64,000 bases of DNA. It comes from Nitrosopumilaceae archaeon (GTDB taxonomy: Archaea > Thermoproteota > Nitrososphaeria > Nitrososphaerales > Nitrosopumilaceae). The notes below the pieces were generated by a model. That model was not told where the DNA came from and made no database searches. It saw nothing but the letters and a program-made list of their open reading frames with translations. Below, one piece after another: positions 13,628-43,003 of this stretch (positions within the stretch are counted from its first letter, which is position 1; each line of letters opens with the position of its first letter). The stretch covers positions 896,001 to 960,000 of the forward strand of contig CBDBCR010000003.1 in NCBI GenBank assembly GCA_965203465.1, written 5' to 3'. Made by a program: the position numbers and the translations under genes.

Positions 13628-13880
13628 GCAGGACAGACTAGAGGGGATTTTAAAAATATTAGTCTGCCCATGTTTGGGCGGCATCGGTGTGCGAAGTGTG
13701 CTGCCTCCCGAGGCCAAAGTCAAAACCCATGTCAGTTCAGGCTGGCCGGGTGCTGTCTTGCGGAAGAACCAGAGGCCTGTATACGGCGTCGAATGCGGGG
13801 ATGGCGGAGCCTGACTAGCGACTGGAAGACGAAGACTCGCGCCAAGGTCGCCAAGAGCATCCAAGATCAAGTCCGTAATA

Positions 13881-15029
13881 TAGTATCTTAGATTGGATTT
13901 CGGTAAAGATCTAAATAGTGGCACGTTGGGGGGGTGCCATGGTGAAGGAGTTCCTCCCCAACGTGAGCTGACCCGCCTGCGTAACATGCAGAGGAAGGAA
14001 AAGAATCGAAAGGCCGGGCTCAGGCTGCTGGTGTGCGTGCACAGGAAGCAGGGAAAGACGATCATGCAGATAGTTGAGGCCACAAACGTCCCGCGCAGCA
14101 CGGTGACCGACTGGATAAAGAGTATCGGGAAGCACGGTTTGAGCAAGAGATACGACATAAAGAACAAAGGGGCCGCGTGCAAGCTCACCAAGCGCCAGCT
14201 AAAGGCGCTCGAGCGGGATCTGGAAGCGGGTCCGGTAGCGGTCGGACTCGGGGCGGGCGCTTGGACGATACCGCTTGTCAGGATGCACATCAAGAAAAAG
14301 TTCCGCGTAGAGTACCACGTACATTCAGTCTGGGATCTGGTGAACCGGCTGGGCTTCGTGTACATCAAGCCCCGCCCCCGCGACGTACGTGGGGCGTCTC
14401 CGGCAGAAATCAAAGATTTCAAAAAAAAGCTCACAGGACCGTAACAATCTACGCTGGGCGCGGGCATCTGGCCGTTTCCTTTGACGAAATGCACGCATCC
14501 ATGCAGAGCGTGGTCCGGAAAGGATGGTACCCCAAGAAAGGGAAGAGGGGCAAGCGCGCCAAACAGGTCAGGGTCGACATCATGGGAAGGCGGAGCGGCC
14601 GGGCCACCCTGCTCGGAGTCGTAGGGGCCGGAGGCCAGAGCTATTTCGAGTTCCACGACACGGGCAACGCCAAGAACGTGGAGGCGTTCCTCCTGAGGGC
14701 CTACAAAAAGCTGGGCAAGCTGCTGATCTACACGGACAACGCCTCGTACCACAGCGAAGCCGTGTTCCAGAGGCTGTACGAGAAAACCGACGGCGGCATC
14801 GTTGTAAGGTTCCTGCCAAAGTACACGCCGGAGCTTGCGCCGATCGAGTCCCAGTGGAGGGAGGTCAAGCGCTACATCGCCAACCAGTTTTTCGACGACA
14901 TCGGGCAGCTGAAACGGGAAGTATTGAAATCTCTAAGATCCGGTCGCATCAAAATCGTAAAGATGCATGACTATCTTACGGTCTGACCATTCGTGCCAAA
15001 AAACTACCGAATGTCAATCTAAGATACTA
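13881..15029 (+). mobile_element. IS630-family insertion sequence with TA target duplication
   Basis: TIR TAGTATCTTAGATTG at 13881-13895 and its reverse complement at 15015-15029, extending to 25 bp with 3 mismatches. TA at 13879-80 and 15030-31. Confidence 0.9.
13939..14986 (+). CDS. IS630 transposase in two ORFs (HTH + DDE) joined by a probable -1 programmed frameshift; possible extra frameshift near the 5' end
   Basis: OrfA WT...LGF.YIKPRP...FKKK ends at 14444; slippery A8G at 14421-14429; OrfB FDEM, TDNASYH, LPKYTPELAPIESQW. The first codons MVKEFLPNVS (ATG 13939) are out of frame with OrfA. Confidence 0.8.
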
Positions 15030-15107
15030 TAAGAGACATGTTCGGGTAACTTGGCAGGCACCCGGCGCAACGGCAAAAATTGCAAGCCAGTCGCGCAATG
15101 TTGTGTT

Positions 15108-40192: not shown

Positions 40193-40360
40193 GTGTCGAA
40201 GTGGAAGAGCGGCGAGACGGACTTCACGGTGAGCGTAAGCAGGGACAATAGAGACTCTTATGTGTGCCGCCTGCCCAAACCGCTCGTGAAAAAGCTGGGC
40301 TTGGACGGCAGGATACGCTTCCGCGTGTTCAAGAGCCGCGTGGAGGTGAGCAAGCCTTGA
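40193..40360 (+). CDS. Small AbrB-like protein (55 aa, not in ORF track), coupled to the methyltransferase
   Basis: MSKWKSGETDFTVSVSRDNRDSYVCRLPKPLVKKLGLDGRIRFRVFKSRVEVSKP is homologous to the IS passenger. Its TGA overlaps TTG 40357. Confidence 0.75.
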   Translation: MSKWKSGETDFTVSVSRDNRDSYVCRLPKPLVKKLGLDGRIRFRVFKSRVEVSKP

Positions 40361-40923
40361 CCGGCCGTGCGACCGGTGGAAAATACAAGACGGTCGTCAT
40401 CGACCCTCCTTGGAGAATCACCGCCACAGGCCCCAACTCGAAACCGTGTCGTGGGGTGCTCAAGCGCCGTTTGGATTACAGAACCATGACCGACCGAGAG
40501 ATCGCCGACTTTCCAATAGACGATTTTGCCGCATCCTCGTGTAACCTTTTTGTCTGGTCTATCCAGAGCCGCTTGCCGTTCACGATGGATCTTATACGCA
40601 AGTGGGGATTCAACTACTACTGCACATTCACATGGGTGAAAAATACAGGCATTACGATGCAGGGCGTCTTTCGCAACAGTGAATTCGTAGTATTCGGATA
40701 TCGCGGACCTTTCAATATACCGTTCACCGGAAGGGCGGTACCAGCCGCATTCAAGGCCCGTACTGGAATCCACTCCCAGAAACCAAGCGAATTTTACGAA
40801 CTGGTGCGAACCAAGACCAAGCCTCCTAGAATAGATGTGTTTGCACGCCAAAGACATCCCGGTTTCGATGTGTGGGGAGACGAGGCTGTCGAGAGACCCC
40901 TCATCGAAGAGTGCCTATTCTAG
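40357..40923 (+). CDS. MT-A70 family amino-methyltransferase (probably m6A DNA MTase)
   Basis: YKTVVIDPPW, YRTMT..EI..FPI, LFVWS, WGF.Y....TWVK, HSQKPSEFY, RIDVFAR...GFDVWGDE. Confidence 0.9.
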   Translation: MTGRATGGKYKTVVIDPPWRITATGPNSKPCRGVLKRRLDYRTMTDREIADFPIDDFAASSCNLFVWSIQSRLPFTMDLIRKWGFNYYCTFTWVKNTGITMQGVFRNSEFVVFGYRGPFNIPFTGRAVPAAFKARTGIHSQKPSEFYELVRTKTKPPRIDVFARQRHPGFDVWGDEAVERPLIEECLF

Positions 40924-40984
40924 CGGGCGTTGAAAATTTCGCCTCCCCCTCCACGCATCAGACAGGCGGGGGCAAAATCTTCCA

Positions 40985-41186
40985 TGACCGGCAGACCCTG
41001 TATCAAATCTTATCTGGGAGGGGAGCATGGCTCTCCGAGATGGGCCCGAGAGTTGAACTATTCTTACCCCGCATGAGGGTGACCGGCAGACCCTGTATCA
41101 AATCTTATCTGGGAGGGGAGCATGGCTCTCCGAGATGGGCCCGAGAGTTGAACTATTCTTACCCCGCATGAGGGTGACCGGCAGAC
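40985..41186 (+). repeat. Exact 95-bp tandem duplication of the IS110 left end
   Basis: 40985-41079 equals 41080-41174, plus a third TGACCGGCAGAC at 41175-41186. Confidence 0.95.
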
Positions 41187-41255
41187 TAACTCACAACAAT
41201 AGGCGGACGGGGTACTACCCCACAGAGGGTGAATGGGAGCTTTCCGCTCAATCGG
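41095..41255. ncRNA. Bridge/seek-RNA-like ncRNA with two internal loops
   Basis: Loop A: stem GAGTTG/TAACTC, strands AACTATTCT and ACCGGCAGAC, cap TACCC-N7-GGGTG. Loop B: stem GCGGA/TCCGC, strands CGGGGTAC and AATGGGAGCTT, cap TACCC-N6-GGGTG. Loop A strands match the element's circle junction. Confidence 0.75.
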
Positions 41256-41295
41256 GCAAATCCACAAATCCAATGGCTTCGAAGGAGGTGACACA

Positions 41296-42369
41296 TTGAT
41301 CAACATTGGGATAGACGTGCACAAAAAGATGTGCGTGGCGACAATAAAAGGAAACGGCAAGGATATAATAGAACAGACCGAATTCAAGAACAGCAAAAAA
41401 GACATAGAGGCGTTCGCGGCACACGTAAAGAAGACGCACGGCAAAAACGCCAGGGCGGTCTGCGAGGCGACCGGCAATTACTGGATGATACTGCACGACA
41501 CGCTGGAGGACTGCGGCATCGACACGATCCTAGCTCACCCGGCCAAGACCAAGGCCATAGCCCAGGCAAAACTAAAGGACGACAAGGTGGACTCGGAGGT
41601 GCTCGCGGACTTGCTACTCATGGACATGGTTTACGAGTCGTTCGTGCCTGACGAGCGCTACAGGAACCTGCGCAACCTGGCCAGAACCCGGCTCGACAGG
41701 GTCCGCACGGCGACGGAGCAGAAGAACAAGATAACTGCGCTTCTGGCCAAATACGAGCACAAGCTTCCCACAAAGACGAAATTCTCAAAGACCAACTTGA
41801 AGTGGATGCGAACCGTAAGCGTCTCGCCGGTGGACAGGCTGTCGCTGGACTCGTACCTCGACACGCTGCAGCTGATGCAGAAACAGACGGAAACGCTGGA
41901 GCGCGAGATAGCTTCCGAATGCATGGACGACGATAGGGCAAAGCTCGTCATGACGGTCACCGGAATAGGATACGTTACCGCGCTGACCATAATCGCAGAG
42001 ATAGTAGACGTAAAGAGATTCAGGACGGCCGAAAAACTCGTCTCGTACGCGGGCCTTTCTCCGTCCCACCGGAACAGCGGCGAGACCAAGCGCGGCGGCG
42101 GCATAACCAAAAAGGGGTCCGTCTGGTTAAGGAACGCCATGGTGGAGGCGGCCAACGTCGCGGCGCGCTACGACGCTCGAATGTCTTCGACCTACGAGCG
42201 GCTGTCGAAAAGGATAGGCAAAAAGAAAGCGAGGGTGGCCATCGCGCGCCGCCTGACGGAGGTAGTCTGGCACATACTGACCGACATGGCCGAATACCGG
42301 ACGCAGGACAAGGATCTAGTGCAGCGAAAGTATAAAGCGGCGGCGGCCAAAGCCCGCCCGCCTGACTGA
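41296..42369 (+). CDS. IS110-family DEDD transposase/recombinase
   Basis: IGIDVHK, CEATG, KDDKVDS, GIG...ALTIIAEI, YAGLSP...NSG, ITKKG...LR, A.VAIARRL. SD GGAGGTG precedes TTG 41296. Confidence 0.95.
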   Translation: MINIGIDVHKKMCVATIKGNGKDIIEQTEFKNSKKDIEAFAAHVKKTHGKNARAVCEATGNYWMILHDTLEDCGIDTILAHPAKTKAIAQAKLKDDKVDSEVLADLLLMDMVYESFVPDERYRNLRNLARTRLDRVRTATEQKNKITALLAKYEHKLPTKTKFSKTNLKWMRTVSVSPVDRLSLDSYLDTLQLMQKQTETLEREIASECMDDDRAKLVMTVTGIGYVTALTIIAEIVDVKRFRTAEKLVSYAGLSPSHRNSGETKRGGGITKKGSVWLRNAMVEAANVAARYDARMSSTYERLSKRIGKKKARVAIARRLTEVVWHILTDMAEYRTQDKDLVQRKYKAAAAKARPPD

Positions 42370-42463
42370 GCACACACTCGTTTGCAGTGGCCCGTCAATC
42401 CGGGAAGATTTGATATGGGAGAATAGGCAGCTAATCTAAATAGTGGCATCGTCAGGATCCCAC

Positions 42464-43003
42464 ATGAGCCGTCGCGAGAAAGCACCGGTGCAAGATCAGG
42501 GGCGCGAAGAAAAGATGATCCGCATGCTCGGCCTTAGAGGGGTTGTCGGACGCCTTGGCCACGACGCGGAGGACGATGATGGCCATACATTCGAACTAAA
42601 GTCAACAACGAAGAACAGTTTCGGAACCGGCAGAGATGTCTCTATCAACATGATCGGTAGGTGGAGGACGCGCCACTGGATATTCGCTGTTGGCACCAAC
42701 TACAGGGATGGTTTTGAGATAGATGCCATGTACCTCTGCACCCCGACCATGATGAAGGAGCAGTTTGATCTATTTGAAGCGCGGTTTGGGCCCGATCTGA
42801 CTCTACGCGACACGGTGATCGGATACATCAAAAAGCTCCTGAAAAAGAGTCAAATTGAGCGGCTCACATACCTCATAGATCGCGGGATGACGTATAACAA
42901 CCCACACATCAGCCTCAAATACGTCCGAGAACATGGAATAGAACTAGATTTGGCAGATGCCGCCCAAAGCCTAAAGCGGGCGATGAATCAGCATGCCAAC
43001 TAA
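42464..43003 (+). CDS. PvuII-like PD-(D/E)XK restriction endonuclease
   Basis: GHDAEDDDGHTFELKS...IGRWRTRHWIFAV...NNPHISLKYVREHG mirrors PvuII (GNDAVD...ELKS...IAKYR..PWIFA...NNPKI...YV.EHG). Confidence 0.75.
   Translation: MSRREKAPVQDQGREEKMIRMLGLRGVVGRLGHDAEDDDGHTFELKSTTKNSFGTGRDVSINMIGRWRTRHWIFAVGTNYRDGFEIDAMYLCTPTMMKEQFDLFEARFGPDLTLRDTVIGYIKKLLKKSQIERLTYLIDRGMTYNNPHISLKYVREHGIELDLADAAQSLKRAMNQHAN

Follow-up and report, generated by a model that had tools for sequence, protein, structure and literature searches.

In IS621, as described by Durrant et al. (2024; PMC11208160), the first loop of the bridge RNA binds the target and the second the donor, and all four guides include the core. 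For the seekRNAs of the IS1111 family, Siddiquee et al. (2024; PMC11187229) reported that the complement of the top strand is placed 5' of that of the bottom strand, an order that is reversed in the IS110 type; IS1111 members carry subterminal inverted repeats and usually have a downstream non-coding region, with a few exceptions, e.g., ISMtsp17. The preprint of Vaysset et al. (2024, bioRxiv) counts 662 archaeal IS110 recombinases, and a preprint survey of bridge RNAs describes 32,190 loci with 86 models (bioRxiv 10.64898/2026.10.21.760802). Here, we analysed a 64,000-nt stretch of the genome of a Nitrosopumilaceae archaeon (contig CBDBCR010000003.1, positions 896,001 to 960,000)—hereafter the window, with coordinates counted from its first base. 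The segment 40995-42419 is very probably an RNA-guided insertion sequence (IS) of the IS110 family, of which the genome has four copies, with a predicted two-loop bridge RNA in its left end and the target loop first. We take it to be a real RNA-guided IS of a known family in a variant arrangement, whose mode of working is proposed from homology and covariation. The element, its gene and its target are arranged as follows.

40995-42419, + strand: IS body, 1425 bp as against 1330 bp in the canonical copy, delimited by comparison of the copies and by an empty-site contig of run X5.
40913-40994, + strand: left part of the genomic repeat of about 85 bp that carries the target; the repeat resumes at 42422-42427, its last 6 bases.
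40985-40994, + strand: left target TGACCGGC plus the AG core (40993-40994), identical to the 3' strand of loop A at 41175-41184.
41296-42369, + strand: gene for an IS110-family DEDD transposase/recombinase of 357 aa, with a TTG start after GGAGGTGA (Pfam, NCBIfam and PDB matches).
42416-42421, + strand: TGGG, the tip of the right end, followed by the AG core in its second occurrence (42420-42421).
42422-42427, + strand: right target AATAGG, the end of the interrupted repeat, identified from uninterrupted repeats and the X5 contig.

Three further copies are found in the source genome, and their similarity to the window is confined to 41083-42427/8. All four copies have CCGGCAG in front and ATATGGG-AG at the end, after which the flanks diverge (AATAGGCAG, ACTAGGTGC, AATAGGCCA and ATCAGCCCG). 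One contig of run X5, with 3 ambiguous letters, splices 40992 straight to 42420 and is an IS-less allele of this very locus. Because the copies, the uninterrupted repeats and the empty-site contig agree, we place the body at 40995-42419 and read the target as CCGGC-AG-AATAG. Occupied and empty sites overlap by AG or AGA only (the next base being A on both sides), with no other target duplication—that is, the insertion is site-specific at a short core, as in other members of the IS110 family. Unoccupied sites with the exact 12-mer target number 4, where base composition alone would predict 0.28. In run X3, one contig passes from 40992 directly to 41313 and so lacks 320 bases (shorter side 30, 4 ambiguous letters); it may reflect either a deletion variant or a chimeric assembly.

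The repeat that carries the target matches the left flank in the window (to 40995) at 11 other places in the genome, with 76-96% identity, so that the family has at least 11 further members. Eleven uninterrupted copies of the repeat show the joined target; they end in CCATGACCGGCAGAATAGG, and their start is the same sequence in inverted complement. One of the other IS copies (L002) is inserted, in reverse orientation, at the opposite terminus of such a repeat. The inverted termini of the repeat (CCTATTCTgGC... and ...CCGGCAGAATAGG; loci L008-L018) each present the IS target.

The open reading frame (ORF) of the recombinase is intact, and its product has the N-terminal DEDD/RuvC-like domain and the C-terminal Transposase_20 domain of the IS110 family (Pfam: PF01548, E=7e-26; PF02371, E=1e-25). 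It scores 249 bits against the NCBIfam model NF033542, "IS110 family RNA-guided transposase" (cut-off 140), matches the IS621 structure 8wt6 in the PDB with E=6.6e-17, and contains the motif GLSPSHRNSG. The TTG at 41296 is the likely start, since homologues begin at the aligned position and the upstream ATG at 41233, which would give a longer ORF, falls inside loop B of the predicted RNA. The gene is preceded by a non-coding left end of 206 nt in the canonical copy and 301 nt in the window copy, and is followed by a right end of 50 nt. The archaeal nature of the host is confirmed by the rRNA operon of the source genome, which fits the archaeal small- and large-subunit rRNA models of Rfam (1441.8 and 1105.1 bits). 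Named relatives of the protein occur in Nitrosopumilus, Nitrososphaera and thaumarchaeotal metagenome-assembled genomes (MAGs) at 49-69% identity, and further relatives in MAGs of Bathyarchaeia, Methanophagales and Methanosarcinales at about 36-42% identity. The source genome also contains a paralogue with 58% protein identity (G000 C1:168967-169968, - strand; L006/L024), in which the upstream region is shortened and the start of the left end and the outer-stem motifs are kept, with no match to the RNA model described below; it may be a decayed or RNA-less copy.

The non-coding left end holds the predicted RNA, with these parts.

41139-41257, + strand: core of the bridge RNA gene, in which an outer stem, P0 (41139-41144 with 41252-41257), surrounds two guide stem-loops.
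41145-41192, + strand: loop A, predicted to bind the target, with basal stem 41145-41149/41188-41192 and cap stem 41159-41164/41172-41177.
41202-41248, + strand: loop B, predicted to bind the donor, with basal stem 41202-41207/41243-41248 and cap stem 41216-41220/41227-41231.

In the mechanism that we propose, a bridge RNA in the sense orientation of the recombinase gene, about 120 nt long, would fold into an outer stem around two stem-loops. Both of these would contain a large internal loop, of which the first would bind the target and the second the donor, i.e., the junction of right and left end in the excised circle. The 3' strand of each loop matches the top strand left of the core together with the core, and so would pair with the bottom strand; the 5' strand of the target loop complements the top strand from the core rightwards and that of the donor loop the top strand just right of the core, leaving the core uncovered. 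The guide segments can be read directly in the window. In loop A, the 5' guide CTATTCT (41153-41159) is the reverse complement of AG plus AATAG (core and right target), and the 3' guide TGACCGGCAG (41175-41184) repeats the ten bases through the core (left target and core); the two bases after it, AC (41185-41186), are the first two bases of the element. In loop B, the 3' guide ATGGGAG (41233-41239) reads as the right end's final five bases followed by the core, and the 5' guide CGGGGT (41208-41213) is complementary, save for one G·T, to left-end bases 6-1 (ACCCTG); the extension CT of this loop in the window copy does not match AA. By homology to IS621 and ISEc11, we would expect the RNA to be produced, to be bound by the recombinase and to direct circle formation and insertion.

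The assignment of the loops draws on covariation among homologues. The protein was searched in 201 genomes of the same family, 28 of which were positive at E<=1e-40, and flanks, ends and loop strands were tabulated for 30 elements from 11 genomes. Three elements for which the motifs gave no left flank or guide (L057, L064 and L066) and ten rows whose right end lay outside the fetched DNA were left out of the guide tests, and duplicate pairs of guide and flank were counted once. The 3' strand of loop A agreed with the element's own left flank at 83 of 136 positions (17 distinct guides), whereas permuted pairings gave a mean of 41.0 and a maximum of 67, and none of 100,000 reached the observed value. 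For the 5' strand of loop A and the element's own right flank, the summed longest Watson-Crick run was 70 over 13 representatives (permuted mean 39.9, maximum 58; 0/20,000). Loop B followed the ends of the element: its 5' strand fitted left-end bases 1-6 at 48 of 72 positions in 12 distinct pairs (permuted mean 31.7, maximum 46; 0/100,000), and its 3' 7-mer equalled the right-end tip in all 20 elements readable at both places, three of which had changed jointly to ATGGAAG. Loop strands thus covary with flanks (A) and with ends (B) far beyond permutations, and the left end holds what is expected of the family—a structured RNA in a non-coding end, with loop segments that covary with target and donor DNA. 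For the 2-base extension of the target loop, 29 of 34 positions coincided with left-end bases 1-2, compared with 23.4 on average in permutations, 75 of 20,000 of which reached the observed value.

Related elements within one genome differ in their loop A strands (L029 and L069; L030 and L056), with L029 and L069 each fitting their own flanks and L056 fitting poorly; judged by these sequences, such pairs are instances of natural retargeting within single genomes. Some further loci deserve mention in their own right. In L062 (genome G065), the 8-mer matching the guide is followed by an extra TAG before the element starts, whereas in its sister L063, which has the same guide, no bases intervene before the element. 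Some 100-150 nt upstream of L032 (genome G006) lies the end of a right-end-like sequence of a different subgroup (CATATGGGAG), and the site after it fits the left-target guide of L032 at 7/8 positions, compared with 3/8 at the occupied site. Finally, L064 and L065 (genome G065) have a stretch of about 100 nt inserted in the left end, with the same opening sequence in both, between loops A and B in L064 and upstream of loop A in L065; it looks like a small mobile insertion.

Comparison of the homologues likewise brings out the stems of the RNA. A first alignment of 19 RNA regions (A1) misplaced the sequences with long cap insertions (L034, L035, L039, L040, L062 and L066), and structure counts were taken from a second alignment of 13 elements (A2) from which these six had been removed. 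Helices P1-P4, comprising 22 pairs, were paired at 88.2% in A2, versus 32-46% with partners slid by 1-3 columns; 8 pairs had changed on both sides, and the covariation score of 0.309 compared with 0.187 in shuffled alignments (0/500). The outer stem P0 had at least 6 contiguous pairs in nine of the 13 sequences, with compensatory variants. No curated Rfam family covers the bridge RNA: a scan of 40500-42900 with E up to 10 returned two chance-level matches only (18.2 and 17.5 bits, with gathering thresholds of 45 and 110).

A covariance model built from A2 was then used to follow the RNA more widely. In the source genome it matched the transposase strand in full at four places, with 115-116 bits, and in part (24.5 bits) at the first of two 95-bp units described below. 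Within a sample of the class, hits occurred in 10 of 151 genomes, distributed as 8/80 in one family (f1) plus the source genome, 1/3 in another (f3) and 0/67 in the other ten, with an unpublished genome (G077) among the positives. A match upstream of and sense to the gene was present at 10 Nitrosopumilus loci (81-136 bits), at 6 loci of Methanophagales/Methanosarcinales/Methanobacteriota (54-58 bits) and at 3 loci of Bathyarchaeia (21-25 bits). By eye, the elements of the Methanophagales type, which have a TG core, and those of Bathyarchaeia follow the same guide logic. The model found no match at the loci from Rhizobiales (L076) and Halococcus (L077), which are the closest outside the archaeal clade, at the distant Klebsiella locus (L078, 24% identity) or at Bryobacteraceae loci.

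For the comparison with known systems, the terminal repeats of the element are also needed.

41001-41011, again at 41096-41106, + strand: left subterminal inverted repeat TATCAAATCTT (pairs I7 and I8; 11 nt, 100% complementary).
42405-42415, + strand: right subterminal inverted repeat AAGATTTGATA (pairs I7 and I8).

These repeats are set 6 and 4 bases in from the element's ends, and in the homologues L028 and L030 their sequence differs yet stays complementary (pairs of 10-14 bp). With IS621 and the IS110 group (Durrant et al. 2024; Hiraizumi et al. 2024 and 2026), the archaeal element shares a DEDD recombinase (PF01548 and PF02371), an RNA in the left end that lies upstream of and sense to the gene, a target loop that comes first and similar cap stems on both loops. 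Three of its four guides end at the dinucleotide core, and the core on the opposite strand is CT, as in IS621. The position described for the handshake guide of IS621 (PMC13626964) corresponds to the two bases after the 3'-side target guide, which match the post-insertion junction. It differs from IS621 in that the guide sides are exchanged in each loop, with the complement of the top strand on the 5' side, in having subterminal repeats of 11 bp rather than 2-3 bp, in the outer stem around both loops and in a donor 5' guide without the core; the proteins, moreover, are only distantly related, as the E-value to 8wt6 indicates. Of the strict features of the IS110 group, the element therefore has the upstream RNA, whereas both loops show the opposite order of guides, in the window copy and in homologues alike, and repeats of 2-3 bp or none are replaced by longer ones.

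The IS1111 seekRNA elements ISEc11, ISKpn4 and ISPa11 resemble the archaeal element in repeat length, in guide order and in site-specific insertion into repeated or palindromic sequences. Subterminal repeats in the IS1111 range of 7-17 bp are present, and the complement of the top strand lies on the 5' side (CTATTCT before TGACCGGCAG, and likewise in loop B); the RNA, however, is upstream of the gene, whereas theirs is downstream in the right end. ISHvo10 is a haloarchaeal element. Together with ISAcp5 (ISHvo10/ISAcp5) and ISMtsp17 it is listed among IS1111 relatives with an upstream or double non-coding region (PMC11187229), an exception pattern like that seen here as far as the published descriptions allow comparison. 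Many IS1111 members have a multi-loop at the donor guide, according to Durrant et al., while the archaeal element has a simple internal loop. The REP-targeting IS110 elements ISPpu9 and ISPpu10 of Pseudomonas putida also insert at one defined position in a multi-copy palindromic intergenic repeat; they are bacterial, and the archaeal repeat of about 85 bp has inverted termini, such that either end offers a target. An attempt to name the subgroup from plasmid hits failed, the labels reading only "IS110 family transposase" and the best identity being 38%.

The combination of IS1111-like subterminal repeats with a left-end RNA, noticed in a preliminary description of this DNA, holds for the 11-bp pair at 41001-41011/42405-42415 and the upstream RNA. 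The same description called the layout mirrored relative to IS621. It does differ from IS621 in a mirror-like way, with guide sides swapped, but this "mirrored" order is the one already published for IS1111-type seekRNAs (Siddiquee et al. 2024). Read on the opposite strand, the core would be CT and the geometry that of IS621, with the RNA-recombinase cassette inverted relative to the ends; an IS621-like synapse with such an inverted cassette is the simplest description. In the literature searches and the passages that we consulted, no published description of an archaeal left-end bridge RNA with IS1111 polarity was found, which is not proof of its absence, and the layout may already be contained in survey data or supplements (Siddiquee 2024; Durrant 2024, Extended Data Fig. 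10c, with six diverse RNAs).

One further feature sets the window copy apart.

40985-41186, + strand: perfect 95-bp tandem duplication (TRF: period 95, 2.1 copies, 100% matches).

The element's opening 95 bases are present in two successive units (40995-41089 and 41090-41184), forming two nested left ends, each after TGACCGGCAG. The window copy accordingly runs from the flank through TGACCGGCAG, unit and unit to ACTAAC, with each unit ending in TGACCGGCAG. The other three copies have a single unit, and the duplication, overlooked in the preliminary description, leaves the downstream RNA gene intact. Here, the DNA of the left-target guide with its 2-base extension forms a 12-base copy of the left junction, whereas the other copies share 9 bases: the 12-bp TGACCGGCAGAC is found both where the flank meets the left end and as guide DNA plus extension. 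Slippage or unequal exchange between these TGACCGGCAGAC repeats is the most likely origin of the duplication, and the 95-bp unit would have arisen by recombination or slippage between them. We consider it unlikely that the element's own RNA-guided recombinase made the duplication by using the guide-coding DNA (TGACCGGCAG followed by AC) as a half-matching decoy target, be it through nested insertion followed by deletion between the copies or through sister-chromatid exchange. The junction of the repeat does lie exactly at the core after TGACCGGCAG, the right side of the decoy, ACTAA, matches AATAG at 3/5 positions, and half-match recombination has been reported for IS621 (bioRxiv 10.64898/2026.08.31.748434). 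Yet slippage or unequal exchange within the 12-bp direct repeat yields the same product, and only the window copy, with the longest identity between flank and guide (12 versus 9 bases), is duplicated. The homologues examined, in which no systematic search was made, provided no second example, and the duplication itself is known from the assembly and not from reads.

On the + strand, the alignment contains 30 G·U pairs and 3 A·C pairs; among the former are U·G pairs, nearly invariant, at the foot of each cap stem (11/13 and 10/13 sequences). Because G·U pairs outnumber A·C pairs 30:3, the comparison favours a bridge RNA that is sense to the recombinase gene. A functional RNA transcribed from the - strand, antisense to that gene, strikes us as very unlikely, even though the call of sense draws on sequence only, the stems retain most of their complementarity on either strand and the minimum free energy (MFE) of the - strand is similar. 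All G·U pairs, those at the cap bases included, would become A·C pairs on the - strand; besides, an RNA from that strand would open with the donor loop and have the core at the beginning of its guides, an arrangement that fits neither the rules given for IS621 nor those for IS1111 seekRNAs (PMC11208160, PMC11187229). The suggestion of the preliminary description that a - strand reading would reproduce IS621 fails on these same grounds.

Still less probable is a reading without any guide RNA, in which the left-end segments would be DNA sites or single-stranded DNA hairpins read by the transposase and the likeness to the flanks would be captured target sequence. It could appeal to the left-target guide DNA, a literal copy of the left junction, and to the RNA being a prediction; compensatory changes in four stems, 5' guides that are complementary rather than identical to their DNA partners and the homology of the protein to recombinases shown experimentally to be RNA-guided all speak for a guide RNA instead.

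The preliminary description had rightly recognized an archaeal IS110-family element and a two-loop bridge RNA gene in its left end, as the rRNA and protein-family matches, the guide covariation and the stems attest. The strings that it quoted are present, CTATTCT at 41153-41159 and GGCAGAC inside TGACCGGCAGAC at 41175-41186, as is the TACCC...GGGTG cap common to both loops (41160-41176 and 41216-41231). Its span of 40985-42436 gave way to the boundaries set by the other copies, an outcome that it had itself listed as a refutation and that applies to its boundaries. A GGCAG is found at both of its junctions (40990-40994 and 42426-42430), but the second is flank, and the circle junction that it proposed (containing AGAATAGG) is wrong, AGAATAG being target DNA and not an end of the IS. 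Given the corrected boundaries, the shared GGCAG and the proposed junction are an accident of the right flank of the window copy. The 6/7 match of GGGAGCT to a supposed right half of the target is explained instead by ATGGGAG as right-end tip plus core, and the order envisaged on the + strand, with the donor loop first and guides starting at the core, is replaced by a target loop first and guides ending at the core. That model as a whole—an element from GGCAG at 40990 to GGCAG at 42430, with loop A as donor loop for an AGAATAG-GGCAGAC junction and loop B as target loop—is scarcely credible, however well both strands of loop A fit the junction, in view of the right-hand GGCAG being missing from the other three copies, AATAGG belonging to an uninterrupted genomic repeat, the empty-site contig keeping AATAGGCAG and, across homologues, loop A following the flanks and loop B the ends.

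Several observations weigh against our own interpretation—an IS110-family element whose sense RNA binds the target with loop A and the donor with loop B. The donor 5' guide is short, with 3-6 bases paired and the core not covered, unlike in IS621. Fits to the left flank are poor in L032 (3/8), L056 (2/8), L065 (2/8) and L062 (3/8), and the longest run with the right flank is only 3 in L002, L028 (6 with G·U), L033, L056 and L072; these elements may be off-target insertions or have drifted later. The permutation tests ignore relatedness among elements, and a left-end motif containing the invariant AG served to position the left junctions. The donor-loop extension showed no significant agreement with right-flank bases 1-2 (12/30 versus 9.9 in permutations; 4,591 of 20,000 reached it), so that a handshake-like extension is half supported—modestly, and for the target loop only. 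MFE folding of the single sequence 41090-41300 was uninformative, with z=-0.17 on the + and +0.94 on the - strand, and did not recover the internal loops; the ends and strand of the RNA are predicted from sequence, and the covariance model, having been built on the + strand, gives strand calls that are not independent. The likeness to IS1111 comes from layout features and not from a protein tree. As for the duplication, it is seen in the assembly alone, and no listed contig piece of runs X1, X3, X5 and X10 bridges it.

With regard to its surroundings, the IS and its carrier repeat lie between a gene for an MT-A70 methyltransferase (40264-40923, Pfam E=2.9e-18) and one for a PvuII-like restriction endonuclease (42443-43003, E=4.7e-09), and the element thus splits a probable restriction-modification pair. 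Two of the four IS copies are themselves split by other insertion sequences with terminal inverted repeats (G000 C3:728917-730065 and C1:501207-502317). The interrupting elements belong to one family of about 1154 bp with 6 copies, one of them in the window (13878-15036), and to another of about 1114 bp, also with 6 copies.

A specialist would be only moderately surprised by these findings, since the principle of RNA-guided recombination is established and large surveys of bridge RNAs exist. For engineering, the locus offers a compact archaeal pair of recombinase and RNA (357 aa and about 120 nt). More importantly, the target, the donor and all four guide segments are readable by genome comparison in a natural archaeal system, together with several natural retargetings. 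We advance tentatively, and with more doubt than conviction, the wider proposal that the element exemplifies a clade distributed over several archaeal phyla (Nitrososphaeria, Bathyarchaeia, Methanophagales and Methanosarcinales)—with an RNA-recombinase cassette that, compared with IS621, is inverted relative to the recombination sites, IS1111 polarity, long repeats and a simple left-end two-loop RNA. It would then represent the IS110/IS1111 intermediate that Durrant et al. inferred, and its guide DNA would also have served its own ribonucleoprotein as the decoy half-target behind the 95-bp nested end of the window copy. The element joins features that otherwise separate IS110 from IS1111, namely an upstream RNA, long subterminal repeats and IS1111 guide polarity. 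This combination suggests that guide polarity is tied to the element's ends and not to the position of the RNA gene, and it bears on how the RNA gene moved between the ends of these elements.

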